A stretch of DNA of 41,740 nt from a virus: IMG/VR virus record IMGVR_UViG_3300005827_000046, positions 1 through 41,740 of that record. One strand, given 5' to 3'. The translations under genes were made by a program, and so were the position numbers. Under the pieces are notes generated by a model. The model did not search any database. It was not told the origin of the DNA and saw only the letters and a program-made list of their open reading frames with translations. Below are positions 121-38,300 of the stretch, one piece after another; position 1 is the first letter of the stretch, and each line of letters opens with the position of its first letter.

Positions 121-1248
121 GCACGTCGTGGGATACGAATCATATTTCGATCTCATATCACACACGCGCGAAGTGTTCGCCTCCACCGGCAGCACACCGG
201 TAGGGGATACAGTGACGCGTTGCCCGTTCACATCAGTGATAGTGAAGGGCGACACAAACCCCGTTATTGTCAAAGTATCCCCGGGAGTGAGGCCATAGAC
301 CCGTTTCACATCGACCGGAAAGGTCACTGTATCGGCGATCACGGACGGGGTCGATCCAGTATAGCATAGGTGTTTCAGGGGTACGCTGGTTTTGAATGGT
401 CCGTTCCACCCAGATAGCATGGTTTTTAGCGCAATATCGATGGCTAAGTCCTCGATCCACACGAAGGCGGTCACCTCTACACCGGCGGCGTGTGAGGCCG
501 CAGCGCTCCCACCGTAGTTTGGATATTGACCCCTCACACAGCCGTGAACGGCCCCAGAACTTGCGGATGTGTATACAATGAATTCGTCCTCGATCTTTAT
601 CCCTGTTGTTATTGTGGCGTCAATGCCGCCTTGTGGCCCCGCTATTCGTGCGTGTAATCCGTCAATTGAAACTAGAGGTATGTCTGTGTCCCCCGTTCCT
701 ATCGGGGAAGCAAGGACAGTTTTTGTCGTAACAAAACACTCTTGTCTCTGCTTTCCGGAAGGATCGAGAAGATCGAGGATAACAAGGCCGGGCTTACTTT
801 CGATGTTCCGAACAAAGCCCCTAAATAAACGCACGTATTCCTCGGGGAATGAAAGCTGAGAGAACCCGCCCCATAGCTCTACCGTGGCCCCAATGATGTC
901 AGGAATGAGTTGCCCGGGGCTTGTGAGTCGGGTCATCTCCCCGTCTTTATCAACCAAGGCCATCGAGAGGGTGGATACACTGGCGCGACCTTGTTCCTGC
1001 TCTTGTATCTGGGATATTCGAGATGTGGACCCGGCAAGATTTATTAGGGCCTTTTGGTCCTTCAACGGCCTAATGCCACCATACACGAAAGGATCACCAT
1101 AACGAACACCCGGATCGCCGTACCGCAAAGCCGTGCCTATCTCGGTTGTTCCAAGCATGATTGCATAACCTGCAATGGTGAGAACGTAGGACGGAAACTT
1201 TACGGACTGGCCGTTATATATTCCGTACCGCCTCGATGCTTCAATCAT
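1..1248 (-). CDS. N-terminal 376 codons of an 803-aa lambda-J-like tail tip / host specificity protein (continues at 41740 through the circular junction)
   Basis: ATG at 1248-1246 overlaps the TGA of the upstream gene (ATGA). I checked every in-frame plus-strand triplet from 1 to 1248 and found no tta/cta/tca, so the minus frame is open to the window edge. It is in phase with ORF 40457..41731 through the 120-bp overlap. Translation contains IKIEDEFIVYTSASSGAVHGCVRGQYPNYGGSAAASHAAG, which resembles the E-x-I...RG-x-x-G-x-x-A-x-x-H-x-x-G signature of J / Phage-tail_3 type proteins. Confidence 0.8.
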   Translation of the reverse strand, partial: MIEASRRYGIYNGQSVKFPSYVLTIAGYAIMLGTTEIGTALRYGDPGVRYGDPFVYGGIRPLKDQKALINLAGSTSRISQIQEQEQGRASVSTLSMALVDKDGEMTRLTSPGQLIPDIIGATVELWGGFSQLSFPEEYVRLFRGFVRNIESKPGLVILDLLDPSGKQRQECFVTTKTVLASPIGTGDTDIPLVSIDGLHARIAGPQGGIDATITTGIKIEDEFIVYTSASSGAVHGCVRGQYPNYGGSAAASHAAGVEVTAFVWIEDLAIDIALKTMLSGWNGPFKTSVPLKHLCYTGSTPSVIADTVTFPVDVKRVYGLTPGDTLTITGFVSPFTITDVNGQRVTVSPTGVLPVEANTSRVCDMRSKYDSYPTTCGLRLSPEDVDVPRYEYWRDSFLGSQIMGFILSETESSGKG

Positions 1249-1520
1249 TTTATCCTCTGCCCCCGTTCGATCATGACCGTTTCAATGACTCCAAGACGGC
1301 GATCAATTGACTGCAAGGATTCAAGGCATTGCTTCCGCACCTGCTCGATCATCTCCGCGTTTTGTCTATCCACTTGAACCATGACAGCCTCGGAAGCTTT
1401 CCCCGTTGTTGCGCTTGCAACCCGAGAATCAATAAAAGATATCACAGTCACTGTGTACCCGATCACCATGACGGTGAAAGCAAGGACGCCTTTAGCCCAG
1501 TGTTTTGTTAGGTTGGCCAT
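1245..1520 (-). CDS. Small membrane protein: N-terminal TM helix plus coiled-coil tail (holin-like or fibre-associated, function unknown)
   Basis: ORF track 1245..1526, whose listed start is TTG. The first ATG is at 1520. GVLAFTVMVIGYTVTVISFI is a hydrophobic helix, followed by a charged heptad-like segment. The stop overlaps the next gene's ATG. Confidence 0.65.
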   Translation of the reverse strand: MANLTKHWAKGVLAFTVMVIGYTVTVISFIDSRVASATTGKASEAVMVQVDRQNAEMIEQVRKQCLESLQSIDRRLGVIETVMIERGQRIK

Positions 1521-1522
1521 GA

Positions 1523-3622: not shown

Positions 3623-3633
3623 CTGAAACCCCC

Positions 3634-4620
3634 TTAGAGTTGGACAACCCATATAGCGAAAAGTTCTTGCCCTTTGTTTGGGGCGGTCGTCATCGTTATA
3701 GTGACACCCGTTCGCGTGTACTCTCGTGAATAGACTTGTGGCACTCCGTCCAGCATCAACACCAATTCAGCATTGGACCGCGGTGTAGAGGACAGTGTAA
3801 ACGTCTGATTACTGTCATCAACCGTACCCGTAGGAATTCCGGAGGCGAGTTGAATCGAGTTTCCGCTTGATATATCTGTCTCGCGGACGAAGGCGTTATC
3901 ATACACGGGCCGCGTCTCTTCACGATACAGTCGATAGTTGTAAAATTTTATTGATGTGGAAGCCGCAAAGGAATACGGCGTTTCAACTCCGAGAGTGCTA
4001 CGCGTATAAAACGAAATGGTCCACGTACCAGAGGGGCCGCCGGAATTCGTAACGCGTGAATAGACTCGACGATTGTTCGCATCCACAAATAAAACGCCAC
4101 TGACATCTGTCACCGGTGAATAGTTATAGGGGGCATTGGTAACAATACCCTCTTGCGTTGGTCCAGTCGATACCGCAAGCCCGTTAAACATGGTGGAAGC
4201 ATCATATGTGGTACCAGTAACCACAAGGGTCACGCTATCCGCGTATCCGGCCTTTAGCTGAATCCCAGACAAATTACTGTATGGTATGACGCGAGAATCA
4301 ACCCCGTCATGCCGGTGACCGGTCAGCACATCGAATAGAGCGGTTAACAGGTCGGCCCGCGTTTTTACGCTATCGGTTGAAGTTCCGACTACACTTGATG
4401 TCCATGTCGGTTTTACATTATAGACCGCCCCCGCCGGAGCACCGACGAATGACTCGATAGAGTTTATCTCTCTTTGAGTGTTTACTATCGGGGCACCACT
4501 CACAACATCAGAGTTATTTAGCCCGACTTTCCCTATGGTAGCATCATCGCCGTTTTTAGCAAGCCAAGCCGCATTGGAATTGGTTTGGTCAACTAGCTGC
4601 CCGTTTACTATGCCCGCCAT
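3634..4620 (-). CDS. Tail fibre protein
   Basis: 328-aa ORF in the tail module. It is Ser/Thr/Gly/Val rich and has a GHRHDGVDS H-x-H type motif common in phage fibres. Confidence 0.6.
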   Translation of the reverse strand: MAGIVNGQLVDQTNSNAAWLAKNGDDATIGKVGLNNSDVVSGAPIVNTQREINSIESFVGAPAGAVYNVKPTWTSSVVGTSTDSVKTRADLLTALFDVLTGHRHDGVDSRVIPYSNLSGIQLKAGYADSVTLVVTGTTYDASTMFNGLAVSTGPTQEGIVTNAPYNYSPVTDVSGVLFVDANNRRVYSRVTNSGGPSGTWTISFYTRSTLGVETPYSFAASTSIKFYNYRLYREETRPVYDNAFVRETDISSGNSIQLASGIPTGTVDDSNQTFTLSSTPRSNAELVLMLDGVPQVYSREYTRTGVTITMTTAPNKGQELFAIWVVQL

Positions 4621-4623
4621 GCA

Positions 4624-5385
4624 TCACCCCTTGATTATTCGTGATCGTAAAAGGCCCGTGTCCCAATAACCGGGCATACCCATTGATACCTGCTCTTCCA
4701 ACTCAAAGGCCATCCCCGTATCGCTCTTTGGTGTCTTATCGAGCGTTACGTTATGAAACACGCCGGGCGTTGAAAACTCCGGTGTTATCTCAAAAGGCTT
4801 TTGCTGAGTGGCCCAAACAAGCCAATTACTACACGCCGTTTTGTCTCTAAGATGTTTGAGTCTCAGTTCAACGAAATTTTGAGACGCAAAAACAATTGTC
4901 TCTTTTATACCAGACGCGGATAAAGTACGAACACCGTCTTGTAGTTGCAACACATCAGGGCCGCGATAGCTATAAGCAATAGTCTCAGGCCGATAAGCCG
5001 TGCCGGTCGTTTGAACCCCAGTGTATGTTAGTGCGCCCGTCCTATCTGCATGAGCAAACCCGATGATGGGCGCGATTGACGACCCGTTCCGCGTACCCGT
5101 TCCAAACAGTAATGACAAGAAAACGCCTGTTGTCGTCGCGATGGTGACTCTGTTTTCGAGCCCCCCGACATATGTTCTATTCGCTGTCACCGTATACACG
5201 TTTGCAGGGTCGGCGGCTTCCATTGCTCTTTTTATCTCTGTGCAAAGAGTCGTTAAGGAATAGAACCCTGCATTTAAAGAAGCCTGAATTTCCGGCCCAC
5301 CTGATGCATTTTTAAAATCAATAGCCGTATTGAATTCGTTTATCTCGTACCCGTACAATATCAGAGATCGTGCTTTTAAGGCCAT
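4624..5385 (-). CDS. Tail protein in the distal-tail-protein (Dit) position
   Basis: 253-aa ORF. Its ATG at 5385-5383 overlaps the tape-measure stop by 1 nt (TAATG). The assignment is by position only. Confidence 0.5.
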   Translation of the reverse strand: MALKARSLILYGYEINEFNTAIDFKNASGGPEIQASLNAGFYSLTTLCTEIKRAMEAADPANVYTVTANRTYVGGLENRVTIATTTGVFLSLLFGTGTRNGSSIAPIIGFAHADRTGALTYTGVQTTGTAYRPETIAYSYRGPDVLQLQDGVRTLSASGIKETIVFASQNFVELRLKHLRDKTACSNWLVWATQQKPFEITPEFSTPGVFHNVTLDKTPKSDTGMAFELEEQVSMGMPGYWDTGLLRSRIIKG

Positions 5386-7349
5386 TACGCCACCCCTCCA
5401 CCGAGTGCAGTGATATGGAAGTCTGTCACATCGGAAGCCTGCCGGACTATCTGGGCGAGACGTTGGCCCGTCTCTACAGTATTCAAATAGTCTCCCTGAA
5501 TCACGATAGTAGCGCTCTTTTTGTCCTGCACTTTTTCGGCTTGTACCATCGGGACGTTGTCGTTTTTCACGTTAGGGATATTCACATCTCCCGACGCTGC
5601 CGCGCCTCCACCGGAAGGAGTAGCGCTTGTCTTGCTCCGATGTGATAGTCCTTTCACAAAAGACCCGAGAGCCATAAGTGCTATACCGCCCGCAATGGCC
5701 GCTGGGTTTGGCGGGAAAATCCCCATGAGCATCATCATTTCACCATATGACACCGCAATGTCGCCGATCATGCCAAGCATCGCAGCACCAAACTGTCCGG
5801 CGGCATCATCCGCGCCAGAACCAAGGCTCTCAAAAAATCCGTTGAACCCGTTCATGAGGCCATTGACCGCTATGGTACCAGCGCTCTGAATTTGTTTCAT
5901 GCGGTTTTTAAATGCTTCTGTTGTGGAATTCGAAAACCCCGCCCATGTGGTGTATGACCGCATGATAGATTGTCGTTCTTCAAGTTCCTGTTGATTCCGT
6001 AGGGCCTGAGTCTGTCTGAACCGTGCGGATTCGATCTCGCGAATGCGCGATTCAAACTCCTGCTTGGATATGATGTGGTTGGTCTGTTCCTGCTTTGCCT
6101 GCTCAAGCCTCCATGCTGCCTCTTCTTCGATTTTTGATTGCTCTTTTGCAAAGAACATAGAACGCTGTTGCTCTTGATCGGTGATGTTCGCACGAATGGC
6201 CGCAGTCTCCGCGTTCAAAACAGCCATCTGCATTTCGTGATTCGACATAACGCGTATGACTTTCGCGTTACTCAAAACCTCATCGCTCTTTGCTACCTCT
6301 TCGTGAACTATCTGACCACGTTTTTCCCAAGCCTGTAGAGACTTTTCGGCTTCCTCAATCCTCTTCTTTAGCTCAACCCTTCTTTCGTCCGCTACCTCTT
6401 CAGGGCTCTTACCGGTCATGAGGGCCTTACCGGAAGCAATCAACCCGGTGTCGGGTTTCACCGCTGACAACTCCTCGCGCATCGACAAAATGGATCGCTT
6501 GAGTTTTGATGTTTCCGCTTCGATCATGCGGAGTTTGTTTACAGATGATGAGGCGTCTGTAAGCCCGAGAAGATCACCTGCTGCTATCCCCCACTGTGTA
6601 AGGGTATCAATAACCGCGTTGGCGGTTGGTAGCATTTTCACTTTCATGCTATTCGCCATGTCCTCCATGAGAGCCTTGAAGGACTTGAACTTTTCACCGG
6701 TGCCGTCGAGAGAACCGGCGAACGAAGACACACGACGTTCACCGGCCTCAATTAGATTGGTTAAATTGGCCTGTTTGTCTCCCGTGTCTTTCAGGTTTAT
6801 CCCAAAATCCTTGAGTGATCTAAACATGCCCGTACTGAGTGAATGAATCATGGTTTCAAAAATTTGTTCTGTCGAACGACCGCGCAAGTCTATTTTTTCA
6901 AACGTCTCCGCAAGTTCGAGCATGCGCGGAATTGCATCGGCCCGGACATCGTTTTGAAGGGCATACGCCGACATCCGCATGGCTTCAAGTTGAGATATCG
7001 ATCCCTTGGTGGCGCTCTGAATCGATGCCATAAGGGCGGAGGATGTGACTCCTACATCCTTAGCCAAAGCATCGTAAGCGACGCTTACGTTTTTTATGTG
7101 CGACGCCATCTCCGCATTTTTAACCAATTCCTCGAACTGCTCAAAAGCTTTATGTACAAGTTCGATACCTTGGTTAACAGCGATTAGAGCTATCCCCACA
7201 TCTGAAAAAGTAATCTTGCTCTTGTTTCCGGATTCCTCTATTGACTTGGCCGCTTTGGATGTGGTGTCCGGTAGCGCGTTGAGTTTTTTGATATATCCGG
7301 CATCATCCAGATCAACTACGACTGTCGTTTTTGTGTCTGTGTCCGCCAC
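5385..7349 (-). CDS. Tail tape measure protein
   Basis: 654 aa. GTG start at 7349 directly after the TAG of the chaperone extension, with GCGGGGG upstream. Long helical, charged central region. Gly/Ala/Met-rich hydrophobic segment near the C-terminus (AAMLGMIGDIAVSYGEMMMLMGIFPP). Located downstream of the G/T chaperones. Confidence 0.85.
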   Translation of the reverse strand: MADTDTKTTVVVDLDDAGYIKKLNALPDTTSKAAKSIEESGNKSKITFSDVGIALIAVNQGIELVHKAFEQFEELVKNAEMASHIKNVSVAYDALAKDVGVTSSALMASIQSATKGSISQLEAMRMSAYALQNDVRADAIPRMLELAETFEKIDLRGRSTEQIFETMIHSLSTGMFRSLKDFGINLKDTGDKQANLTNLIEAGERRVSSFAGSLDGTGEKFKSFKALMEDMANSMKVKMLPTANAVIDTLTQWGIAAGDLLGLTDASSSVNKLRMIEAETSKLKRSILSMREELSAVKPDTGLIASGKALMTGKSPEEVADERRVELKKRIEEAEKSLQAWEKRGQIVHEEVAKSDEVLSNAKVIRVMSNHEMQMAVLNAETAAIRANITDQEQQRSMFFAKEQSKIEEEAAWRLEQAKQEQTNHIISKQEFESRIREIESARFRQTQALRNQQELEERQSIMRSYTTWAGFSNSTTEAFKNRMKQIQSAGTIAVNGLMNGFNGFFESLGSGADDAAGQFGAAMLGMIGDIAVSYGEMMMLMGIFPPNPAAIAGGIALMALGSFVKGLSHRSKTSATPSGGGAAASGDVNIPNVKNDNVPMVQAEKVQDKKSATIVIQGDYLNTVETGQRLAQIVRQASDVTDFHITALGGGVA

Positions 7350-13368: not shown

Positions 13369-14706
13369 TTAGCCGGAAACACCGGCAAAGTGTTGCATAC
13401 CCTTAAGGCTTCCGCGTCCAGACTCGGACACGTTACCCGTTTTTGAACCACCATAGAACTGACCAAACGAAAGGGGCGCATCCTTCGTGATCGTCTTTTT
13501 GAACGTCTCACACACGGTCTTAACCTGCTTTACCGTCGTACACATTCCTAGGATTTCTTTCATTTCATCGGAGTGTGAAGATAGACCGGATTCGCGGACG
13601 ATCTTCTCGCGTTCACTTTCGAACACGATGCGTTTTTTGTCCGCTTTCAAAGCGGCATTTTCGGTTCTCAACTTCAACACGTAGTTGCGAACTGATTCGC
13701 CGACTTTGCCCTTTTTCATTTCGCGATCGACTGATTCTTCAGACTCCTCGGATTCTTCAGACTCTTCGGATTCGTCTGATTCTTCAGACTCCTCGGATTC
13801 TTCAGACTCTTCGGATTCGTCTGATTCCTCAGACTCCTCGGCTTCGTCCGCTTCCGAAGACTTTGCTTTACGTTCTTTCGGAGCTGGCTTTTTGTCCGCT
13901 GGTACTTCGTCGCCGTCTGGCTCTTCCTGACCGTCGCCCTTGTGGGTAATGGTCAACTGGCCTTCCTCCATTGCCTTGTCCATTTCGTCCATGAGTTTTA
14001 ACGCCTCCTCGGTTTTACCCGATTTCAGCGACTCATAGGCTTTTTTAAAAGCTTCCTTCATGATCTCCCCTTTCTTGGATATTGATGCGCCTCTTATGGA
14101 TTCCATAAGCGCGCGAAACCCTCCGCCCGCTCCGGGAACCGTAACAACGTCCGCCGAAGTCGGGAAAAGATCGGTTATATAGTTTATTGTTTCGCCGTCA
14201 GATCGAGCGACTTCTAACTTATTCAGGATGTCCGGGGCTTTCACTTCTTTTGCAACATCATTGATGGTGCGTTCTTTACCGTCACCACGGCCACGAACAG
14301 ATATGCCAATGATGTCTTTTTCTGGATACAGCGTCTTGAACTTTATAGCATTCTTTATTAAGTCCCAGTCCTTCTCATATGTAGCGCCTTCAAACACGTT
14401 GAGGATGCCGCGCATCTCCATAACGCCAGTCTTTTTATTCTCCTCACTTCGAACATTCGACCAGTACCCGATGATGTCGGCGACACTACGCTCGGGTCTA
14501 TCAACTTCCTCTGTCTCGGTGGCATGATCACGAAATACGCGTTCCCCTTCAAACCGGGGGGCGGATCGCGAAATGCACTCAGCCGAATAATAGTTGCGAT
14601 TTTTTAGATTTCCAAGGCCCTCGGATAGCATGGCGCAATCGGCGCTCCGCTTAGCGTCATCTGTGATCGCCGCTTCCCGTAGCGGTATGTGAAAAATGTT
14701 AGGCAT
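13369..14706 (-). CDS. Prohead protease / scaffolding fusion-type protein with an acidic SE-repeat tract
   Basis: 445 aa in the Mu gpI-like position upstream of the capsid gene. Globular N-terminal half, helical charged C-terminal half. Contains a (E/D)ESEES run of about 40 residues. Confidence 0.6.
   Translation of the reverse strand: MPNIFHIPLREAAITDDAKRSADCAMLSEGLGNLKNRNYYSAECISRSAPRFEGERVFRDHATETEEVDRPERSVADIIGYWSNVRSEENKKTGVMEMRGILNVFEGATYEKDWDLIKNAIKFKTLYPEKDIIGISVRGRGDGKERTINDVAKEVKAPDILNKLEVARSDGETINYITDLFPTSADVVTVPGAGGGFRALMESIRGASISKKGEIMKEAFKKAYESLKSGKTEEALKLMDEMDKAMEEGQLTITHKGDGQEEPDGDEVPADKKPAPKERKAKSSEADEAEESEESDESEESEESEESEESDESEESEESEESEESVDREMKKGKVGESVRNYVLKLRTENAALKADKKRIVFESEREKIVRESGLSSHSDEMKEILGMCTTVKQVKTVCETFKKTITKDAPLSFGQFYGGSKTGNVSESGRGSLKGMQHFAGVSG
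13733..13854. repeat. Perfect 2 x 45-bp tandem duplication plus a degenerate partial third copy
   Basis: gattcttcagactcctcggattcttcagactcttcggattcgtct occurs at 13733-13777 and again exactly at 13778-13822. 13823 onward matches for about 19 nt with 1 mismatch and then decays. It encodes the SE-rich tract of the scaffold. Confidence 0.95.
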
Positions 14707-15026: not shown

Positions 15027-16748
15027 TCACCCCCGGTTTTCTGTCTTGATCGCTTTTTTGTCAGCGCCATCAAGCTGTTTTTTGTTATCGGTTGATGGTG
15101 CGGTCAGCGGATTGAATGTCCCAGCAAGGGACTGCTCCTTGTCCTTTTCATCCGCATCCCGCTCCGCTTTCACATCGTCATAGTTGTAATTGTTGACCTT
15201 CATTTCCTTCGCCGTCATCTCAGCGGCCATGCGTTTCGAGAAGTAGCCCGCCTGTTCTGACTTGATGGTGTCATCAATCTTTGCGCTTCGTTCGTCGATC
15301 TGGATTTCAGGCATGATCACACGGTGATCGGAAGTGATACCGGCAAAATCCTTCCACTCCTGAACGATAAAATCGGCAAGTTCTGAAAGAATGTTTTGAC
15401 GTTCTTCGAAAAACTTTCCAACGGGTTCAGCCGCCACAACAGCCGACGCGCGTGTATGACCGCCTGACTCTGTTGATATACCAAAATATTGCACGGGGAC
15501 ATTCAGACCAATAGCACACATCGAAAGAAGTTGATGCCACGTGGTGTCTGACCCCGTGTTGATTCCAGACGTTTGGAGCGGCTGAATCTCAATAGCCTTG
15601 TTATGGCATAGAGCACTGCCCGCTTGCGGCTCGGGTCCACTCATAATCTCTTGTGCATCTGCAACGTCACGATCATCACCATCAACCACCACATCCCAGA
15701 TAAAAGCGGCTTCGTTTTTTACCTTCACAACGCGGTAGGACATGTAGTCATTGATTCGTTTCAAGTACCCGAGAATGGCGAGAAGATCGGAGCGCCCGCG
15801 TTTTTCGTTTGATACGACGTTGACACGTATGTGCTTTACGTCTTGCGCTGGTACTTGTTCAAGGACGAATTCGCTCATGGGAATGCCGTCCTTGGTGAAC
15901 ATCTGATATTGAGTGGGGTACTGCAAATGGTAATAATAAATTTTCTCAATATCAACCGGATCGGTGACGACTTCCCAGCATGTAGACGGATCTATACAGC
16001 GGCGAATCGGACCAATGGTGGTCATTTGTTTTCGCAGCATGATCTCGCCGTATATGGACAACTCGCGCGCCATAGTACGAATGCGCTCATGAAACTTAGA
16101 AATTTTTTCGAACTTGTCCCAAAGGTCTTGGGCTTCATTGTCGCCATCAAAAACAATTTTGATCTTGCCGCCCAAAACGAAATTAACAATGGTGCTAACA
16201 GCGAATTTCGCAATAGGGTTGTGGTTTACTTCCCACCAAGCGCGGGCGTGCATTTCGAGATAGTTGTAGATGTACTGATTCTTTGAGAACGGGCCGCCCA
16301 TCAATTGGATGTAGTCTTGGCCAACTAGTAGCCCGTTCGATACACCAATACCGGGGCCGCTTCCCGTTTCGAACTCATTCGCTTCTCGTATTTTAAATTC
16401 CTGTTCGGCTTCTTTGACACTCGCGAGAAGCTCCTTCGTGCTCTGAATGCGTATGCGCTGGTATTCCACTTTGCCGTTTTCCGACTCGCGAACACGTAGC
16501 ACAATACCTTTCACGTTCACCGATCCGGGGTTGCTTTGTGTCTCGCGCAAAAACTTCGTCACGGGATCGATCTGGTCTTTCGTGTTTTCGATAACGAATG
16601 GAATACGGTCCGGGTCATACGCATCCGCGTGCGCGATCCCGAAGCCTTTACGTTTTCGCACTGGTTTTTCAGCTTCACGCGTAGCGACTACAGGCATGGG
16701 TTTCCGAACAACCGCTTTCCGTTTTACAGTCCTTGTTTTTTTAGCCAT
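15027..16748 (-). CDS. Portal protein with a basic ~130-aa N-terminal extension
   Basis: 573 aa, the largest head-module ORF besides TerL, adjacent to the MuF-like gene. The N-terminus is MAKKTRTVKRKAVVRKPMPVV...KPVRKRKG. Family not verified by search. Confidence 0.6.
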   Translation of the reverse strand: MAKKTRTVKRKAVVRKPMPVVATREAEKPVRKRKGFGIAHADAYDPDRIPFVIENTKDQIDPVTKFLRETQSNPGSVNVKGIVLRVRESENGKVEYQRIRIQSTKELLASVKEAEQEFKIREANEFETGSGPGIGVSNGLLVGQDYIQLMGGPFSKNQYIYNYLEMHARAWWEVNHNPIAKFAVSTIVNFVLGGKIKIVFDGDNEAQDLWDKFEKISKFHERIRTMARELSIYGEIMLRKQMTTIGPIRRCIDPSTCWEVVTDPVDIEKIYYYHLQYPTQYQMFTKDGIPMSEFVLEQVPAQDVKHIRVNVVSNEKRGRSDLLAILGYLKRINDYMSYRVVKVKNEAAFIWDVVVDGDDRDVADAQEIMSGPEPQAGSALCHNKAIEIQPLQTSGINTGSDTTWHQLLSMCAIGLNVPVQYFGISTESGGHTRASAVVAAEPVGKFFEERQNILSELADFIVQEWKDFAGITSDHRVIMPEIQIDERSAKIDDTIKSEQAGYFSKRMAAEMTAKEMKVNNYNYDDVKAERDADEKDKEQSLAGTFNPLTAPSTDNKKQLDGADKKAIKTENRG

Positions 16749-17770
16749 TCCTCAAATCCCTCCGCTTCTAATTGTACGCCTGATTTTTCAGCCGCATCGT
16801 CCCACATCTCATCAAGTTGCTTACTCGCGGGCGCAAGGTCGCAACGGCAATTGAAATGCAAGGGAGGCGGCGTATCGTCTCCAAACTTCTTTTCTATCTC
16901 TGACAATGTGAGGCCGTCACGAGGACGGCAACAGCATTCGCATGTGTCACCATCGGTGAGCGTAATCCATGTATAGTCATCGATGTCGTATCCAACGCGC
17001 TCGGCAGCATCAATCTTGCCCGTCCGCACGGCGTGAACGAGTTCAGTTTTTAGATCGCGCTCAAACTCCCAGCCGCGTGACCCGCTACGCGTCCACACCT
17101 TCGGTTGTCTATTCGTCCATTTATTGACGGCGCGAAGTTCAGATGATAGGGCCGCGATGTCATTATCATCCAGTATGCCAATATCCTCTGAGTCAACATC
17201 CCCATCGGCCTCAGCTTCACGCACTTTTTCTTTCCCAAGTAATCCGAAAACCGAATCAATCTTTGCAAGCACAACCTGCAATTCCGTGTTGTATATCAGG
17301 CCCTGCTCTAAGAGCGTATTGATCTCTCGCGATATCCGAGCGGCTGTGAGGATTATACGATCCGCGTAGTGAGCTACTTTGTGCTTCGATTCGATAGGAT
17401 CGTTCAGTCCGGGCGCTTTTTTGTCGCCTGAAAGTCCGAGCGTTGACAGCGCATAGAATTCACCAAGCGCGCCCATTGCGTAGCAACGCTGCTTCATTCG
17501 TGTGGTGATGAGAATCAGATCGTGCGCCATATCGCGCAACTCTTTGTTCACTGCGGCCATGGTGGTTTGTGCGTGCTGATTGGCATATGCGTAAGTGACG
17601 CCGCTGGTCTTTTTCATGTGGTGATGCACTACATCGCCGCGTATTATCTTGTTCGCTTTAGATATCCTATCAAAATACTGGGCGCGATAGTACAGATAGA
17701 ATTTTTCGGCCAACGCATTGACCTCATCGCGAACAGCACCATAAAAGGTTGACCCTTTACGGTGATTCAT
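16724..17770 (-). CDS. Head morphogenesis protein (Mu F / SPP1 gp7 family)
   Basis: C-terminal TCECCCRPRDG...PPPLHFNCRCDL matches the H-x-NCRC signature. I chose the ATG at 17770 (ATGA overlap with the upstream stop) over the track's TTG at 17794. Confidence 0.8.
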   Translation of the reverse strand: MNHRKGSTFYGAVRDEVNALAEKFYLYYRAQYFDRISKANKIIRGDVVHHHMKKTSGVTYAYANQHAQTTMAAVNKELRDMAHDLILITTRMKQRCYAMGALGEFYALSTLGLSGDKKAPGLNDPIESKHKVAHYADRIILTAARISREINTLLEQGLIYNTELQVVLAKIDSVFGLLGKEKVREAEADGDVDSEDIGILDDNDIAALSSELRAVNKWTNRQPKVWTRSGSRGWEFERDLKTELVHAVRTGKIDAAERVGYDIDDYTWITLTDGDTCECCCRPRDGLTLSEIEKKFGDDTPPPLHFNCRCDLAPASKQLDEMWDDAAEKSGVQLEAEGFEEWLKKQGL

Positions 17771-18084
17771 GAACACCCGCAATTGTCTTCGCAAAAGGTT
17801 ACGTCACATGAGGCGCTAAGGATGCGATTCGCTGCGGTGTTGTTCGTGAGCCGAAGATACACAGTACATGGCCCCTCAACATCGCTACCACGCTGGTACC
17901 TCGCCGATCCGTATGATATCCATAGCGTGCCCTGTTCAAGCGTTCCTACTTCCACAAAAGCGTCACGGTCAAAACAAGCATCGAGTTCAACACGCCCGAT
18001 AGATGCCTTTTTGCCGTCCTCAATTACAACATGCGACTCGGCAACCGTTCCCGGCGCCACATCCTCACATAGTACCTGTATCAT
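17767..18084 (-). CDS. Hypothetical Cys-rich protein
   Basis: 105-aa ORF coupled by ATGA overlap on both sides. C-terminus is SCDVTFCEDNCGCS. Confidence 0.6.
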   Translation of the reverse strand: MIQVLCEDVAPGTVAESHVVIEDGKKASIGRVELDACFDRDAFVEVGTLEQGTLWISYGSARYQRGSDVEGPCTVYLRLTNNTAANRILSASCDVTFCEDNCGCS

Positions 18085-18791
18085 TTTTTAAACCCTTTCA
18101 CGAAAGCAGTGAAATAGTTAATTCCTGTTAGGTTGTCGCGAACGCAAAGTTCTATATAGTCGTTCAGACTCTTCACAAGCTTTACGGGTTGTGGATACAC
18201 AATCCAAAAGTCCATGTTGTTCGGACTATCGGAAGTATCCAGATAGAACCGATCCGCAAAACTCATCATTTCTTCGTTCTGTTTGAACGTATAAATGCTA
18301 GTTGTGACATTGTTCGCTTTGATCGAATAGGTGATTCCGTTCGTTAGAACCGGGTCGGCATAGAACTTACCGAATCCGATATTCACATCGTTCCCCACTA
18401 TAACCATCTCCGTTACATAGTGGTCTTGAGTGGAACTTGTATTTGTGTACCGAAAACAAACAGGCGTCGCAAGGGTGCCCGTTATGTTCATAGACCTACT
18501 CGCACCATTCAGCAAAAAAGAATACAACCCGTCCGTTGCATTCACCGGTAGGTTGACAACGTTGACGGCAAGGGCGTTCGTGCCGTCGATATTGGAAACC
18601 GTGGCCACTGTAGCCGTAGATCCGTCCTGAATTTTGACGTTGATAGAACTATCAGAGTTGATGCCGAGCGTCCGGGTGTAGAACGTCGAATCTCGTATCG
18701 TCGTCACGTTTGAATAGTCTTGGGATAAGAGGATCGCCGGGCATAACAAGAGGACCACAACAACTAAAAGTTTCGTCATCATGGTCCTCAT
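18081..18791 (-). CDS. Exported protein of unknown function (Sec-type signal peptide)
   Basis: ATG at 18791 with GGAGGGG 5 nt upstream. The track's longer start at 18884 overlaps the upstream gene and lacks an RBS. N-terminus is MRTMMTKLLVVVVLLLCPAILLSQD. The remainder is beta-rich. Confidence 0.65.
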   Translation of the reverse strand: MRTMMTKLLVVVVLLLCPAILLSQDYSNVTTIRDSTFYTRTLGINSDSSINVKIQDGSTATVATVSNIDGTNALAVNVVNLPVNATDGLYSFLLNGASRSMNITGTLATPVCFRYTNTSSTQDHYVTEMVIVGNDVNIGFGKFYADPVLTNGITYSIKANNVTTSIYTFKQNEEMMSFADRFYLDTSDSPNNMDFWIVYPQPVKLVKSLNDYIELCVRDNLTGINYFTAFVKGFKK

Positions 18792-18819
18792 GCTATCCCC
18801 TCCATAGGTTGCTGTCAAC

Positions 18820-19479
18820 CTAGAGCGTGACAGCCCGCAAGGACGCATTGAGTTTTGCGAGCGTTGGGCCGGATGGCTGGCCAAGGTTTACGCCGAGCAC
18901 TTTAATTTTCATGGTGGCCGATCCTGTTACCTTCACGCCGCCAAGTTCGATTGGGTGTATAACCGAGCCGCCGCCTTGAGGCACGACTAGCTTGCATATT
19001 TCTGTGACCGTGGTGCCGTCGTCCGACACAACTTTGAATTCGGAATACTGACGGCATGAAACCGTTATGTTGCGAAGGGACTTCACGACGCCTGCCGAAA
19101 CCGAAATGGTGGCCGGTGTAATCTCGGTGATCGGATCGGAGTTAACATCAACGCTAGTCGATCCCGCGACTGCTCCGCTTTTGAATTCTTCAACACCCCC
19201 GGCCTCAACCGGCACGGTAATAACACGACCCGAGCTATCTGTTGCGATGCGTCGATAGTTTGCCCCGTCGTATCCAGCCATCGGCATAATGCCATCGCCC
19301 GACGTGCCCGCCTGACCATCGAGTGGTACGGTGATCGTGTTGCCAGCGGCATCACTCAACCGAGCAACAGCACGGCCTTTATTATCGACATTTAGGGCTG
19401 TAGCCTCCCCATCCGCGAGCGTTCCGGGGGTTGCCTCATACATCCCAACGCCAAGAGCATCAATCTTCTGTAGTCCCAT
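18820..19479 (-). CDS. Hypothetical beta-rich protein
   Basis: 219-aa ORF with GGAGGA RBS 8 nt before the ATG at 19479. Contains recurring D-x-x-G-x-x-(V/I)-x-(V/L) segments (VDNKGRAVARL, DSSGRVITVPV). Confidence 0.6.
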   Translation of the reverse strand: MGLQKIDALGVGMYEATPGTLADGEATALNVDNKGRAVARLSDAAGNTITVPLDGQAGTSGDGIMPMAGYDGANYRRIATDSSGRVITVPVEAGGVEEFKSGAVAGSTSVDVNSDPITEITPATISVSAGVVKSLRNITVSCRQYSEFKVVSDDGTTVTEICKLVVPQGGGSVIHPIELGGVKVTGSATMKIKVLGVNLGQPSGPTLAKLNASLRAVTL

Positions 19480-19849
19480 GTTTCACATCCTCCATGTTAT
19501 GGTTTATATCCATCTCCAATATGACAGGTAACGCCTTCGATGGCAATACCCGCTTATCGGGCACCGTTGCCCACGAAAGCCATGAATCACGTATAGCCTC
19601 GTAGACTGCCCGAACAGGGACGCCTAGCTTGTGTGATGCTTCAAGTGCTGTGTGTCCTGTTGCCCATAACCTAAGGAGTGCTTTCATGTGGATGACATGT
19701 TTTCGCCCGATGATCTGTCGATGCCTCGACTCCTCAAGACAATAGAGCGAACACGTGAACTGTCGCGAGTGGGGCATAACGCGGAAAGTATTTCTACATC
19801 CACGGCCCACACATCGACGACGTTCTAGTTTTATTCCATCCATATTCAT
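19460..19849 (-). CDS. Zinc-ribbon plus helix-turn-helix protein
   Basis: 129 aa. C-x4-C ... F-x-C-S-x2-C (CVGRGC...FTCSLYC), then GHTALEASHKLGVPVRAVYEAI, which is HTH-like. Lies directly downstream of terL. Confidence 0.6.
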   Translation of the reverse strand: MNMDGIKLERRRCVGRGCRNTFRVMPHSRQFTCSLYCLEESRHRQIIGRKHVIHMKALLRLWATGHTALEASHKLGVPVRAVYEAIRDSWLSWATVPDKRVLPSKALPVILEMDINHNMEDVKHGTTED

Positions 19850-19855
19850 ATTGTG

Positions 19856-21241
19856 TCACCGGCGCGCGAAACGCGCAACGGGCCGTGCGTTTTTCTTGAG
19901 TTGTCGGCGAATAAGATATTGACTCGTGGCGTCAACACGGTCATCGTTCTTGCCGTTTGGAAACGAAACATGTTCCTCGATGTACTTGCTGACCCACGGA
20001 GCAATCGACGGATCGGGCAGGAAAACACTTCCCGACTCAAAACGCGGCGTGATCGCATCGGCGCGAGCAAGTTTTGACCCTTCCGGCTCAACGGCTATCA
20101 CGTTCGAAAACTCTTGTTTAAGCGTCTCAATGATCGCGGGGCCATTCGCCTTGTCCTCTATCAATATTCCGCGTGCTCCGGGGAATCGATACACCACATC
20201 ACGAATAGCCTGCACGGTTGCTAAGAACCCCATGCGCTCATTGACCTCATGGATAAGATAGTCGTTTGGCCCAAGCGGTCCCCACACCTGAATTGCAACA
20301 TAGTCAGATGTTTCCTTATCCTTGAATGTGGCATCAACCGATATCCAGTAGCACTCAACGTTCGGAAGTACCTTATAGCGGTTCATAAACCACTCACGTA
20401 AGAACATGTCGCCCTGTTCGCTTGTCGGTCTACATCCGTACAGAGCCGACCAACCACGAACGCCGATAGTGCGTCTGATGCTGAGAAGTTCTAGCTCATC
20501 ATATCGTTCTGGGCAAAGTGCCTCACCAAACGCGCGGCCTAAAAGATCGCCCTCTTCAGCAAGCGCGGGTAGCTCGATCACTTCCCATGAGTCTTTATCT
20601 TCATTGTCGTCTGACAACAAAAAGCCAATCAAGTCGCCTTCGTGCCATCGTGTTGCCATGACAATGATGGTTGCGCCCGGCTCGGCACGTGTTGAGAACG
20701 TATCGCGCCACCAATCAATTGTACGCCTACGCATAGTAGGTGAATCAGCATCGGCGCGATCCTTCACGTAGTCGTCGATGATGAGAAGATCGCCGCCCTT
20801 ACCGGTTGCGGGGCCATCAACGCCGACGGTCATCATAGCCCCGCCGTCTGTTGTCTCCCACCACTCGGACGATCTCACATCACGTCGAACGCTTATCGGC
20901 AACTTGTCCGCATTCGCTTCCACGATGTCGCGCGCTTGCCTCCCCCACGATGCAGCGAAATCAGCGCCGTATGAACCTAGCAACACGCGCTTGGTGGGAA
21001 ACATAGACAAGAACCAAACAGGCAACCCGCGACTTACAAGATGACTCTTGCCGTGGCGAGGTGGGCACGTAATGATGATGCGTTTCCCACCCTCAAAAAT
21101 CCGTCGGGCGAGTAGGCGGCTGATGTATTCAATGTGTCTATAACGTACAAAATTCTTGTCGAGCCGCGACATCATAGCCGCTGGGTGGATGCGCCACGCC
21201 TCGGCGGCTACAATTTCAGAGGTCGCTGAGGTCTTCGGCAT
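19856..21241 (-). CDS. terL: Terminase large subunit
   Basis: Walker A CPPRHGKS, Walker B DLLIIDDY, C-terminal nuclease-type acidic residues (VDATFKD, NDDRVDA). The start is uncertain: ATG at 21241 or GTG at 21262. Confidence 0.85.
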   Translation of the reverse strand: MPKTSATSEIVAAEAWRIHPAAMMSRLDKNFVRYRHIEYISRLLARRIFEGGKRIIITCPPRHGKSHLVSRGLPVWFLSMFPTKRVLLGSYGADFAASWGRQARDIVEANADKLPISVRRDVRSSEWWETTDGGAMMTVGVDGPATGKGGDLLIIDDYVKDRADADSPTMRRRTIDWWRDTFSTRAEPGATIIVMATRWHEGDLIGFLLSDDNEDKDSWEVIELPALAEEGDLLGRAFGEALCPERYDELELLSIRRTIGVRGWSALYGCRPTSEQGDMFLREWFMNRYKVLPNVECYWISVDATFKDKETSDYVAIQVWGPLGPNDYLIHEVNERMGFLATVQAIRDVVYRFPGARGILIEDKANGPAIIETLKQEFSNVIAVEPEGSKLARADAITPRFESGSVFLPDPSIAPWVSKYIEEHVSFPNGKNDDRVDATSQYLIRRQLKKNARPVARFARR

Positions 21242-21671
21242 CGGATGTCTGTCCAATAGCACTTTCGATTGTTAGCAGCGCCTCGAAAGCTTTCGGATCG
21301 CGCGCAATAGCTGCGAGGTCAATCATCTTGATTGGCGCTTTCGGATCGCCAGCATGAACGATCTTTGATTCGTTTGGATACCGGGCAGGGTCGCGGTGGT
21401 TCAAAAAGAACTTAATGGCAAAGACGTCGCCGAGTAGGGCGCGCTGGTACAGAGCATTTTCAACTTCAATGACTTGCCCCTTAATGATCGCCTCGTACCG
21501 CGCTCGGTTGGCGGGGTTTTGATGCAACCAACGCGCAAACGTGCGTGGGCGTGTCCCGACCTCTTTGCACGCTTTATGCAAAAACTCCCCACGCTCTACT
21601 CTATCCAGAACTGCCAATATTCGATCAATTGCTTCCGGGTCAACAACCGGTGTGTCGATAGATTCCTTCAT
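21216..21671 (-). CDS. terS: Terminase small subunit (HTH type)
   Basis: 151 aa directly upstream of and overlapping terL. ACKEVGTRPRTFARWL is HTH-like. LGDVFAIKFFLNHRDPARY resembles the conserved TerS helix. ATG at 21671; the track start at 21677 is TTG. Confidence 0.7.
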   Translation of the reverse strand: MKESIDTPVVDPEAIDRILAVLDRVERGEFLHKACKEVGTRPRTFARWLHQNPANRARYEAIIKGQVIEVENALYQRALLGDVFAIKFFLNHRDPARYPNESKIVHAGDPKAPIKMIDLAAIARDPKAFEALLTIESAIGQTSDAEDLSDL

Positions 21672-21683
21672 ACCCAAAGGCTA

Positions 21684-22076
21684 TCACAGATCATCGAGGT
21701 TGTGAAATGCCTCATATGCTTGAACCAATTTCATGAATTGATCGAAAGGCAATACAACCATCGGACGTTGGTTATCTCCCGCCGTAACAACCACCGGTAT
21801 GTCACCGCGGGCCTCATCGCAATGCACTTGCTCAATAGTCGTGACGGGTGCATAGGCTTTTAGCTTTTTGCACTGAATCCAAAACGGCCCCGTGTCCTGT
21901 AGGTCGCGCCCCTCTTTCGCGTCCACCGTGTGGAATTCCAAGTGACGGCGCGCTTTTGGGTATATTGATTTTAGTTTGCCCGCAACCCAGCGCTCAAAAT
22001 CGTGCCCTTTTTTGCGTGCCCGGCGACCCTTTAACCTATACACAGATTCTGTTTCAGCATTTTCGAAGTCATTCAT
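21684..22076 (-). CDS. PD-(D/E)XK nuclease, Hjc-like resolvase
   Basis: ATG at 22076 with AAGGAG 9 nt upstream; the track's N-terminal extension to 22184 runs into the iteron region. KGHDFERWVAGKL plus GRDLQD...WIQCKK fits the G-x-x-FE ... D ... (E/Q)-x-K pattern. Confidence 0.6.
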   Translation of the reverse strand: MNDFENAETESVYRLKGRRARKKGHDFERWVAGKLKSIYPKARRHLEFHTVDAKEGRDLQDTGPFWIQCKKLKAYAPVTTIEQVHCDEARGDIPVVVTAGDNQRPMVVLPFDQFMKLVQAYEAFHNLDDL

Positions 22077-22109
22077 GGTTCTTTTTCTCCTTAATTTTAT
22101 AAACGTAAT

Positions 22110-22138
22110 ACGATAGAGGCACCTCCTAAAATGGTCAA
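22110..22138 (-). promoter_or_regulatory. Candidate sigma70-type promoter for the nuclease-terminase (late) operon
   Basis: Minus strand reads TTGACC (22138-22133), a 17-nt spacer, then TATCGT (22115-22110). The -10 overlaps the palindrome CGTATTACG. Confidence 0.35.
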
Positions 22139-22164
22139 CTACTCGGAGGCGATTTTTTGACTCC

Positions 22165-22248
22165 TGACCCATTTTATGACCCATCGATAGGTCAGGGTTA
22201 AAACTATGATCTCAAAAAGGAATTCGGACTTTTTAGTGGCTGACCCAT
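22165..22248. repeat. Iteron group: three perfect TGACCCAT copies plus one inverted 7/8 copy
   Basis: TGACCCAT at 22165-22172, 22177-22184 and 22241-22248. ATAGGTCA at 22187-22194 makes the palindrome TGACCCAT-CG-ATAGGTCA. Confidence 0.9.
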
Positions 22249-22441: not shown

Positions 22442-24700
22442 TTACACACTTTTTACCCAACGCTTTCCGAATTCCGTGTGGCACTTCTTAAAACCACACG
22501 CGCGAAGTGCCCTACCAAGTCTGAGTTGCGCTTTGTGGTCCATGCCGTCGGCAGTCCCGTGTAGCGGCCCATTAACGTCGCAGAGGTCTTTTGTTTTTAT
22601 GTACCCCTTATAGAAATCGGGGTTTTCAGCAATATGGGAAGTTATAGCCTCAATCCACGGATCCTCGGCGGTACGCAAGGATTGTTCCTCTGTAACGAGT
22701 CTGAGGATTTCAGGGTCATCTATGAAAGGCTTCTCCCCCTCCACCTCATAGCGAAACACCGCTTCAGCGATTAGCTGGTCTCTATCGCGCGAGAGCGCAT
22801 CACGATCGCAGTGCGACACCGTTACCGGCCAGAACCGTCTATTGCCCGTTTGGTCCTGAAGGTAGTCGTCTGGATTGGCTGTTCCAATGAACACAGTTCG
22901 CCTAGGTAGCTCTATAGTCTCCCGGCCATATGGCAACCGCACATTGTCCACTTGACGCGTTATAAACGCTTTTAGAGCGTTGATCTCCGTTTTACGCATG
23001 CCGGTCAGTTCACCAATCTCGTAAACCCACCGGCCCTGAATTCCGAGCACGGTATCCTTGTCACCGATGTTGAGATCGGCATCGCTGAACCAATCGCCGC
23101 CTAGTATTGAAACGGCGGTTGATTTTCCGCAACCCTGTTGTCCTTCAATAATGGTGACTGTATCGACTTTGCATCCGGGTGAAAGCCCGCGAGCGGCCAT
23201 TGCGATGATCGTCTTTGACCCAATAACTTGGAGTAGCTTGTCAGGCCCCTTGGCTCCTAGATAATCACGTAGCCAAGTGTTTAGACGCTCTTTGCCATCC
23301 CATCTGAGGCTGACAAGATAATCACGAAGCGGGTCTATGGCGTTCGCATTCGCAATGCTGCATACGGCATCATATATCTTGGCCTTGTCGGGCTCAAACC
23401 GCCACGTGTTAGCTAACCACATCATGATGATCACAGCATCCGAGTCGCCAAACTTGTCACCGAGTTTTGCGCCCCATGGAGCGTTACACCCATAGGTGAT
23501 GCGATTCATGAATATGTTTTTAACGAAGAGATTTTTCCCAACCGCGTTTGAAAGAACAAGGACAATATTGCGTACCGAACACTTGGGACGTGCGCCCGGG
23601 CCGGGACCACTTCGCTCGATGTCCTCACGCCACGATCGGAGGGTCTCTAAATCCTTCTCTTGCTCATTACGAAGCGCGGGGGTAAGAGCATCTAGGTCTT
23701 GTCCTAACACTGAGTCAAATTGCATCTCGGGGTCTGATGATTCGCGGGCCTTCGGCATGGTGTACTTTAAAAGCCAATCGATGACACTCTTTCGATTCGT
23801 GCGACCATGATCATACCCCACCATCCCAAGTGCATAGAAATCATCAGACAGCACGGATAAAATTTCATTCGTCTTATAGCCCGCGTGGTACATTTTGCAC
23901 GCGACGGAAAGAAGCGCCGCCGATCTATCAACTACACCCTCACCCGTCATGATCATCGTTTGCGTTGCAGTGTCTAGTTTGTCGAGGGACACCGTTTCCG
24001 GAATATCCGATCCCGGGTCTATTGTCGTCTTAACAGATGGCGCCTGTTCCAAGTCTTCAACTTTTTCAAACAGCGGGAAGTCTTCTGTAACGTGAGGTAG
24101 GAAACCCGCCCACTGATAGGGCTCATTACTATCGGGGTGTATAGATGGTGGTAGCACGATCTGACGACCCGCCGACATCGCAACAATCTCCCACGCCGAA
24201 CGCCAGCGATAACCGGCATCAATCTCCACCGCAGTCAGATACTTTCGATCATTCCCGGATGGTGGAGTACTCGGCATCATCACGCGCACTTTATCTGATG
24301 AGCACGCGAGCATGCGCCCCTTAAATTCTCTCCGGGTTCTGATGTAGATATGTCCCGAGCCGTTTCCCCGACCTGATAAAACGGCGGCACGTTCGGGCGA
24401 TGACATTGAACCGCCCCCCGGGATGATTTTATCAAGAGCCTCGTGCATTTCGTTGAGGTGTTTTTCGTCCTCACTCTTTACATCGCAGTCGAGAGCCGCG
24501 AGGAATGTTCCGTCTGGAAATTCAGACATGGCCCCAAGACGCACCCCGAGATTGTATCCCGGTTTATATGCAGCCACTAGCGTTTCGAGTTTTTGTTTTG
24601 AGCCCGTTGACCAACGCGCAGCAAGCGGCGCTTTGCTTTTAGGTTTCAACCAATGTAGGGAAAACCCAAGCTTATAGTACCATTCAAGGTGATTAAGCAT
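22442..24700 (-). CDS. Bifunctional primase-polymerase (PrimPol) / VirE-D5-type helicase
   Basis: 752 aa. N-terminal LGFSLHWLKPKSKAP, ALDCDVK (DxD) and SGRGNGSGHIYI resemble PrimPol motifs. Walker A is GQQGCGKST in the C-terminal half. GGAGGA RBS. Confidence 0.85.
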   Translation of the reverse strand: MLNHLEWYYKLGFSLHWLKPKSKAPLAARWSTGSKQKLETLVAAYKPGYNLGVRLGAMSEFPDGTFLAALDCDVKSEDEKHLNEMHEALDKIIPGGGSMSSPERAAVLSGRGNGSGHIYIRTRREFKGRMLACSSDKVRVMMPSTPPSGNDRKYLTAVEIDAGYRWRSAWEIVAMSAGRQIVLPPSIHPDSNEPYQWAGFLPHVTEDFPLFEKVEDLEQAPSVKTTIDPGSDIPETVSLDKLDTATQTMIMTGEGVVDRSAALLSVACKMYHAGYKTNEILSVLSDDFYALGMVGYDHGRTNRKSVIDWLLKYTMPKARESSDPEMQFDSVLGQDLDALTPALRNEQEKDLETLRSWREDIERSGPGPGARPKCSVRNIVLVLSNAVGKNLFVKNIFMNRITYGCNAPWGAKLGDKFGDSDAVIIMMWLANTWRFEPDKAKIYDAVCSIANANAIDPLRDYLVSLRWDGKERLNTWLRDYLGAKGPDKLLQVIGSKTIIAMAARGLSPGCKVDTVTIIEGQQGCGKSTAVSILGGDWFSDADLNIGDKDTVLGIQGRWVYEIGELTGMRKTEINALKAFITRQVDNVRLPYGRETIELPRRTVFIGTANPDDYLQDQTGNRRFWPVTVSHCDRDALSRDRDQLIAEAVFRYEVEGEKPFIDDPEILRLVTEEQSLRTAEDPWIEAITSHIAENPDFYKGYIKTKDLCDVNGPLHGTADGMDHKAQLRLGRALRACGFKKCHTEFGKRWVKSV

Positions 24701-38134: not shown

Positions 38135-38300
38135 TTTTGACCCCCTCCAATTGGGTCTGATGTTTTGAGACGTAGGGCAATCCCGCCCACGCCTTGAGCC
38201 AAAAAGAACAACCGCACGGTGTCTGATAGGTGTGGCCACGATAGACCCACACCGGTACAGACGACATGAAACCAGAACGTTTTTGACTGCCAAAGTGTTT

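Follow-up and report, generated by a model that had tools for sequence, protein, structure and literature searches.

Phages are known to carry exported accessory genes, or morons, in their late and structural regions. Examples include Lom and Bor of lambda, Cor of phi80 and N15, Llp of T5, and Sp and Imm of T4. The locus described here pairs a predicted export signal with a similar setting. It comes from the phage genome held as IMG/VR record IMGVR_UViG_3300005827_000046, which was analyzed over its full 41,740 nucleotides (referred to below as the window). On the minus strand, between the gene for the large terminase subunit (TerL) and those for a MuF-like minor head protein and the portal protein, lie four genes that we call A, B, C, and D in the order in which they follow TerL. 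A first-pass annotation had noticed four tightly packed open reading frames (ORFs) at this place, and all four were recovered where it had put them, with their flanking genes confirmed. What are they doing inside a packaging and head module? Comparison with related phages shows that the interval is two separate things, a backbone gene (A) and an old accessory cassette (B-C-D). For gene C, the reading that we favor, at a probability of about 0.4, is that of a virion-type glycan- or receptor-binding module redirected to the cell envelope. The literature searched contains no description of C's jelly-roll family or of this gene arrangement.

Backbone gene A and the B-C-D cassette

The four genes are real, because their frames are intact and their order and start/stop overlaps are kept in independent metagenomic phages. 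Among these phages, ortholog identities run from 28 to 34% for A (three other phages), 40 to 46% for B, 41 to 60% for C, and 26 to 31% for D. The complete series TerL-A-B-C-D-MuF-portal is found on a 7.4-kb JGI contig (L001), with identities to the window of 29% for A, 43% for B, 60% for C, and 31% for D. The order A-B-C-D-MuF-portal recurs in L003/L006 (IMG/VR and an activated-sludge ENA contig, ~39 kb), at 34% for A, 40% for B, 52% for C, and ~28% for D. There, the TerL is not homologous to that of the window, and a DNA methyltransferase gene sits between TerL and A (L003 1300-3563); a boundary of module exchange lies just upstream of A in these phages.

The most informative relative is L002 (IMG/VR, 39 kb; portal 38% identical), in which the order is TerS-TerL-A-MuF-portal, with A abutting MuF. 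Hidden Markov models (HMMs) of B, C, and D found no match in the ~78% of this contig that was covered. Since L002 lacks B-C-D and yet has A, B-C-D is a clean three-gene indel and A belongs to the clade's backbone. More distant relatives read TerL-MuF-portal (L008) or TerL-85 aa-portal (L007). The alignment to related genomes that had been proposed as a check for an indel therefore found one, with B-C-D present in L001 and L003/L006 and absent from L002. The accompanying idea, that of an accessory insertion carrying its own DNA-binding protein, survives in part. The insertion stands as B-C-D; A lies outside it, being present in L002 without the other three and remaining linked to MuF-portal in L003/L006 despite their exchanged TerL, and the insertion is neither recent nor foreign.

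How old is the cassette? In A to D, the GC content at third codon positions (GC3) is 0.47 to 0.56 and codon usage scores -1.14 to -1.19. The other genes span both sets of values, so that the deviating nucleotide composition of a moron is not seen. A recent or foreign acquisition was rejected on these native values, on the deep divergence of the carriers, and on the translational coupling of the cassette to MuF. C is as well conserved as the major capsid protein: its identity is 60% to L001 and 52% to L003, compared with 54% and 55% for the major capsid protein, 43% and 41% for the portal, and 35% and 38% for MuF. Taken together, such comparisons indicate that B-C-D is old and under strong purifying selection.

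The genes are packed closely. Six nucleotides separate the TerL stop (19856) from the start of A (19849), A extends 20 nt into B, which ends 28 nt before C, and ATGA overlaps occur at both the C/D and the D/MuF junctions. The second of these overlaps led us to revise the MuF start to the ATG at 17770 instead of the TTG at 17794. Among the hallmarks of a moron, B-C-D shows presence or absence among close phages at the same map position (absent from L002, on the ~78% read). A promoter and terminator of its own are lacking; its genes join their neighbors by ATGA overlaps, and a search for a terminator after D found none. A separate promoter for C was considered and discarded. The best sigma-70-like site in the 8-kb region scanned, at 18818-18790 on the minus strand (TTGACA-17-TAGCAT, 10/12), has its -10 element across the start codon of C, and any transcript from it would begin inside the signal-peptide codons; the number of promoter-like sites is about that expected from shuffled sequence.

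In reference databases, A to D leave almost no trace. None of them matched Pfam, PHROGs, NCBIfam, or PADLOC, except for a subthreshold match of A to HTH_23. GenBank phages gave no match by megablast of the region or by tblastn of B, C, or P0011. With P0085 as the tblastn query, the sole match was a fragment of 34 residues in a metagenomic record without annotation, and with P0012 a weak match led to Vibrio phage PS25B.1 (described below). Single-protein scans of IMG/VR with B and C returned nothing, and a first metagenome scan was likewise without matches.

Gene A appears to encode a small DNA-binding protein that belongs to the conserved packaging and head backbone of the clade. It precedes MuF-portal in four phages, counting the window and including L002, where B-C-D is missing. 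At its N terminus is a Cys4 zinc-ribbon-like motif. In an alignment of four orthologs, C13, C18, and C33 are invariant and C37 is present in three of the four, the fourth Cys being missing in L002; the spacing of the first pair varies between Cx2C and Cx4C. A putative three-helix helix-turn-helix (HTH) follows at about residues 55 to 95. Its match to HTH_23 in Pfam falls below threshold (E = 0.048; 13.9 bits against a cutoff of 24.6), and a profile built from four A sequences matches the DNA-binding domain of gamma-delta resolvase (1res) at E = 0.004 to 0.013. A may serve as a regulator or as a packaging accessory.

B, the first gene of the cassette, has no signal peptide. A fiber-like motif occurs in it twice, as ..D.KGRA..RL.. 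and as GYDGANYRRIATDSSGRVITVP, ahead of a beta-rich C-terminal domain of ~120 aa, and B matched nothing in Pfam, PHROGs, NCBIfam, PADLOC, or the PDB. Outside the orthologs, one protein (P0158) resembles B at the level of the motif only, and a neighboring gene in L013 that had been a candidate B homolog was rejected. The C-terminal domain has a homolog (5.8e-12) in L027, a distant relative, where it is the first of a series of small beta-rich ORFs (98, 105, 190, and 255 aa; 53-2012, plus strand) that precede TerS. From such arrangements, terminase-proximal junctions look like a hotspot for small beta-rich genes. Do B and C share an origin? A recurring D-G...V-x-V pattern in the two had been taken as a hint of a common fold. 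It is there as a short motif; a common fold or origin is unsupported by profile comparison (hhalign probability 0.9%, not significant). The stalk of C, described below, is the only stretch that aligned with B, again without significance.

D is predicted to be small, cytoplasmic, and probably all-beta. It does end in the Cys cluster that had been pointed out for it; this cluster is absent from the orthologs, and a metal site was rejected on that ground. D seems to travel with C. In L012, a C ortholog (41% identical) shares 4 nt with the D homolog that comes next (hhalign 96.4%, hmmsearch 4.5e-9), with no B upstream and no MuF downstream; the pair instead has a TnpB-like gene beside it and precedes a DUF5681-like (TerS-like) gene. 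As C and D occur together there without B, they form a tighter unit within the cassette.

Signal peptide, stalk, and jelly-roll domain of C

C is the best conserved of the four genes. Its product divides into a predicted signal peptide, a stalk, and a C-terminal jelly-roll domain. The good ribosome-binding site (RBS) that had been reported for the gene is indeed there, GGAGG with a 7-nt spacer before the ATG. A longer, TTG-started form of 267 aa is unlikely because the orthologs begin at the hydrophobic segment. That segment has the layout of a Sec signal: an n-region, MRTMMTK, with a charge of +2, then the h-region LLVVVVLLLCPAILL, then S, with the likely cut at LLS↓QD. The same succession of n-, h-, and c-regions recurs in four C orthologs, whose cut sites read AHA↓V, SKA↓Q, LAA↓S, and, in the window, LLS↓Q. 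In C, P0003, P0004, P0005, and P0026, the n-regions carry +1 to +2 and the uncharged h-regions measure 12 to 20 residues, as a Sec signal requires (~7 to 15, up to 20 residues). The c-regions of the orthologs are of the AxA type; at the site of the window, Leu stands at -3 and Ser at -1, and the rule allows either residue. The predicted cut falls 0 to 4 residues ahead of the first conserved motif of the mature protein, (Q)DYS..T.I.D.

What is conserved here is the layout and not the residues. None of the 19 columns of the signal region is invariant, compared with 21% of those in the stalk and 32% in the jelly-roll. Such a pattern is typical of cleaved Sec signals, and the signal peptide noticed in the first-pass annotation accordingly looks genuine. 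In the AlphaFold model, residues 2 to 16 are helical, and most of the h-regions have the length of a cleavable signal and not that of a membrane anchor. A lipoprotein reading, with signal peptidase II acting at LLLC, was set aside: it would place Leu at -1, against the lipobox [LVI][ASTVI][GAS]C, and the Cys is absent from all orthologs.

Other signal-bearing proteins are predicted in this phage genome, which therefore makes use of Sec routing. A 709-aa ORF that closes the tail module distally (1523-3652, minus strand; no Pfam or PHROG match) has a signal-peptide-like N terminus, MFRIFLVYLSILLVTSPAFG, counted from an internal Met, and would be a second large, apparently exported protein in the structural region. 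A papain-like or C39-like cysteine peptidase (36400-37194, minus strand) has the signal peptide MKKRILFMLLFPVLAQG and adjoins ORFs with internal hydrophobic segments at 37191-37514 and 37493-38344; these are probably a Sec-exported lysin and its lysis cassette. In L002, a 577-aa fiber-like protein encoded just upstream of TerS (4568-6301, plus strand) has a signal-like N terminus, MQYLILLFVMIASICFA↓ADD. It is homologous neither to C nor to the 709-aa ORF of the window.

The stalk follows directly. Its conservation starts at the predicted mature N terminus (QDYS..T.I.D), and it holds a DG...D(G/S)...L.V motif. Beyond it, residues 86 to 236 form a jelly-roll beta-sandwich, which AlphaFold models at a pLDDT of 96 to 98 with 60 homologs; the model used rests on this 60-sequence alignment, prediction from two sequences having reached a pLDDT of only 44.6. 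Structure prediction and Foldseek had been suggested for all four proteins. They were run for C, and against the PDB they returned generic jelly-rolls only (a Cry11 domain at the top, CBM32, CBM6, the hemagglutinin head, and viral capsid jelly-rolls) at E values of 0.008 to 0.03 and TM scores of 0.25 to 0.38. One close model was found in BFVD, A0A2I7QKZ4 (E = 3e-11; root mean square deviation [rmsd], 2.0 Å).

The domain belongs to a large, undescribed phage domain family. A metagenome profile search with C and the L001 ortholog gave at least 453 representative clusters (50% identity) at E < 1e-3. All matches cover the C-terminal ~150 residues, with E values down to 1e-16 for distant members, and the motifs LLNGxSxxMNVNGS..PV.F, LTNG, and VRDNLTG run through the family; C matches the profile significantly over this domain and carries these motifs. 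Family members matched nothing in Pfam, PHROGs, or the PDB sequences. A cultured representative is p0030 of Vibrio phage PS25B.1 (QZI92155.1), which contains the domain (hhalign 99.1%, E = 1.7e-18) and whose gene lies between those for the terminase and the portal.

Most of this family is made without a signal. The hydrophobic N terminus is absent from 55 of the 60 members sampled, and signals are found only in the C orthologs and in P0026, the gene for which (L013 2176-2955, minus strand) adjoins an RmlD-like dTDP-sugar reductase gene, a surface-polysaccharide context. In the long members P0027, P0032, and P0038, the domain comes after repeat-rich or coiled-coil regions. A signal-less member in L005 adjoins tail-fiber-like and Ig-domain genes. 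The domain is normally a signal-less part of structural modules. Portal genes are often close by, and a distal binding head is a plausible role for it. C itself matched no carbohydrate-binding module (CBM) or lectin family in Pfam or among PDB sequences, and the likeness in fold is weak.

Competing explanations for C

How might such a cassette work? In the reading that we favor, B-C-D, inserted between A and MuF, would be expressed from the late head operon, and C would be made with a cleavable Sec signal and exported late in infection. The mature protein would consist of a stalk and a lectin-like jelly-roll head, probably oligomeric and fiber-like. Nearly all members of the family lack a signal, several lie in virion modules, and the long ones place the domain after repeat-rich or coiled-coil regions, which is what points to the C lineage as a virion module redirected to the envelope; it would have gained a Sec signal on a module that phages normally use without one. 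Once exported, C would have as its ligand a conserved glycan or receptor of the cell surface or periplasm. It would probably serve to mask receptors, either for superinfection exclusion or so that progeny are not lost by adsorption to lysing cells and debris. Both B and D would stay in the cytoplasm, where D may act as a partner or chaperone of C. A bolder version, that the signal-bearing virion module and D together make up a late receptor-masking or anti-readsorption system, a new class of self-exclusion in which C-D is mobile, strikes us as doubtful.

Several observations pull the other way. Signal-less family members are encoded between the head genes and the sheath gene of a 95-kb myovirus-like contig (L014), downstream of TerL-portal in L015, between TerL and portal in L009, and just after a portal-MuF fusion in L055 (the fusion, of 779 aa, is encoded at 4030-6369 in this unrelated phage); portal-linked members of this kind favor a virion role for the family. 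C is coupled by ATGA overlaps into the head operon, with no terminator or usable promoter, which is atypical for a moron. Receptor-binding and exclusion proteins usually diverge fast, and C, unlike these receptor-interacting proteins, is as conserved as the capsid protein. No match to a superinfection-exclusion or anti-phage defense family was found in PADLOC, Pfam, or PHROGs. B and D match no family and have no assigned role. Finally, neither of the two genome-collection scans gave a match, hence no prophage and no host assignment, which leaves the envelope type of the host unassigned.

Many of the same observations suit an explanation in which B, C, and D are virion accessories, such as head or neck fibers or decoration near the portal vertex, and the N terminus of C is not an export signal in vivo. 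It could instead be a buried oligomerization or anchoring helix, or be removed in some other way. The location of the genes inside the head-morphogenesis operon and their coupling to MuF would be natural for such proteins, as would conservation of C at the level of the major capsid protein, the fiber-like repeats of B, and the signal-less relatives beside portal genes, including PS25B.1 p0030 between terminase and portal. The difficulty is the N terminus. An n-, h-, and AxA-type c-region kept in four orthologs without residue conservation is a real Sec signature, and a segment of this kind would be captured by Sec or the signal recognition particle. Nor do databases speak for a virion protein: B, C, and D matched no known decoration, fiber, or scaffold family in Pfam or PHROGs, no PHROG structural annotation applies, and no solved virion structure matches the C domain at E < 1e-3. 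We know of no tailed-phage virion protein that is exported by Sec. A more speculative possibility is that exported C ends up on the particle, which would make it a tailed-phage virion component routed through Sec. The premise that an exported protein has no obvious role in head assembly is reasonable, and yet it is weakened by a family that is typical of virion modules and recurs by portal genes. On balance, we regard a purely virion role with no export, the chief rival to our reading, as somewhat unlikely.

Could C remain in the membrane? As a morphogenesis or lysis-timing factor, it would keep its signal as an uncleaved anchor and hold a periplasmic domain that couples the state of the envelope to assembly or lysis; loose analogies are the membrane-associated initiation of the T4 prohead and the periplasmic sensor domain of the RI antiholin. 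The hydrophobic N terminus would serve this purpose, late expression from the structural operon is expected, and the gene adjoins and is coupled to MuF and portal, which initiate head assembly. The positive-inside rule, however, would put the whole folded part on the other side of the membrane from the cytoplasm, and thus from the portal. Most of the h-regions are rather short to act as a stable anchor, and canonical cleavage sites follow them. The probable lysis genes are elsewhere, at 36.4 to 38.3 kb, and no similarity to holins, antiholins, or spanins was seen. This explanation we hold to be improbable.

Less probable still is that C and D are an exported effector, a lectin-like bacteriocin or toxin, with its immunity or chaperone partner, mobile cargo that would serve hosts in competing with one another. 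C-D does move as a pair between contexts and adjoins a TnpB-like gene in L012, C is predicted to be exported and D is not, and the top PDB fold match, a weak one, is the Cry11 toxin domain. The Foldseek matches are generic jelly-rolls at E values of ~0.01, no toxin or immunity family was matched, and a stable place in an essential operon together with very high conservation fits poorly with competition cargo. That A to D are chance frames or decayed remnants without function, for which the missing database annotation is the sole argument, is refuted by intact, ordered orthologs in several independent metagenomes and by the high-confidence model of C, and it deserves next to no credence.

Genome setting and comparison with known systems

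The window ends in an exact 120-bp direct repeat (1-120 and 41621-41740), which shows that the contig is circularly closed and represents a complete phage genome of ~41,620 bp (41,620 unique bp). Scans of the window for tRNA genes and for Rfam families found no matches. The features of the locus are collected in Table 1.

Table 1. Genes and elements in the terminase-portal region of the window
Feature	Coordinates	Strand	Basis
TerS	21216-21677	-	Confirmed flanking gene
TerL, large terminase subunit	19856-21262	-	Terminase_6N/6C; phrog_38, 8.7e-97
Gene A, 129 aa	19460-19849	-	ORF and orthologs
Gene B, 219 aa	18820-19479	-	ORF and orthologs
RBS of C, GGAGG, spacer of 7 nt before ATG, within B-C gap	18799-18803	-	Sequence
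Gene C, 236 aa	18081-18791	-	ORF and orthologs, family, fold
Predicted Sec (signal peptidase I) signal peptide of C, residues 1-23	18723-18791	-	n/h/c layout in four orthologs
C stalk, residues 24-85	18537-18722	-	Alignment; pLDDT 50-69
C jelly-roll beta-sandwich, residues 86-236	18084-18536	-	pLDDT 96-98, family profile
Gene D, 105 aa	17767-18084	-	ORF and orthologs
MuF-like minor head protein	16724-17770	-	Phage_Mu_F, 3e-4; phrog_115, 4e-8
Portal protein	15027-16748	-	Phage_portal_2, 3e-11

The MuF-like gene stands upstream of the portal gene throughout the clade; the commoner order in phages is portal and then MuF. After the portal gene, a scaffold-like protein and then the major capsid protein are encoded, each preceded by a further ORF (of 101 and 157 aa, respectively). 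The scaffold-like protein (445 aa; 13369-14706, minus strand) has a long acidic SEESEE/SDESEE tract, in place of which its orthologs in L001 to L003 have lysine/glutamate-rich tracts. Directly upstream of TerS, on the same strand, are an unannotated 166-aa ORF (21684-22184, minus strand) and a primase-polymerase/VapE-type helicase gene (22442-24700, minus strand), so that replication genes pass directly into packaging genes without an evident break.

Why should this locus matter? A phage domain family of hundreds of clusters, missing from Pfam, PHROGs, and the PDB, is now defined and has a confident model, and PS25B.1 p0030 offers a cultured representative in which its function can be tested. 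It is unusual for one protein to join a secretion signal with conservation on a par with the capsid and with translational coupling to head-assembly genes, as C does. If a virion-type domain has acquired a secretion signal here, the lineage would give a tractable view of how phages recruit structural modules for envelope functions, among them exclusion, receptor masking, and the avoidance of debris. The interval also carries two cautions for annotation: not every gene between terminase and portal need be a head-assembly gene, and not every unannotated block found there need be a recent insertion.

How does the locus compare with what has been described? Gene A recalls resolvase- and homeodomain-like HTH proteins (HTH_23/HTH_7) in its putative three-helix HTH, which aligns with the DNA-binding domain of gamma-delta resolvase. 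It differs from them in having no catalytic recombinase domain, in its N-terminal Cys4 motif, and in a match below the Pfam threshold; a further peculiarity, confined to this clade, is its fixed place between TerL and MuF. For the jelly-roll domain, the nearest relatives are those of its own family, such as PS25B.1 p0030 and A0A2I7QKZ4. Residues 86 to 236 of C are a clear member, and the PS25B.1 gene likewise lies between terminase and portal; C departs from the family in its signal peptide, which 55 of the 60 sampled members are without, and no member has an ascribed function, belongs to a Pfam or PHROG family, or has a solved structure. CBM6, CBM32, Cry domains, the influenza hemagglutinin head, and the receptor-binding heads of phages share the jelly-roll topology with C. 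As in such binding proteins, the domain is C-terminal in the long members, after repeat-rich or coiled-coil regions; the structural match is weak and there is no sequence relationship, so that ligand binding by C is proposed by inference.

The closest functional parallel would be with the morons named at the outset, Lom, Bor, Cor, Llp, Sp, and Imm. Like them, C is phage encoded, variably present, and located among late genes, with a predicted N-terminal export signal and, by analogy, a possible action at the envelope. C shares no sequence or family similarity with these proteins, and it is neither a lipoprotein nor an outer-membrane beta-barrel. It is set apart from them also by the way it is held in the genome, with no promoter or terminator of its own, coupled into a head operon, conserved to the level of the capsid, and accompanied by two cytoplasmic partner genes.

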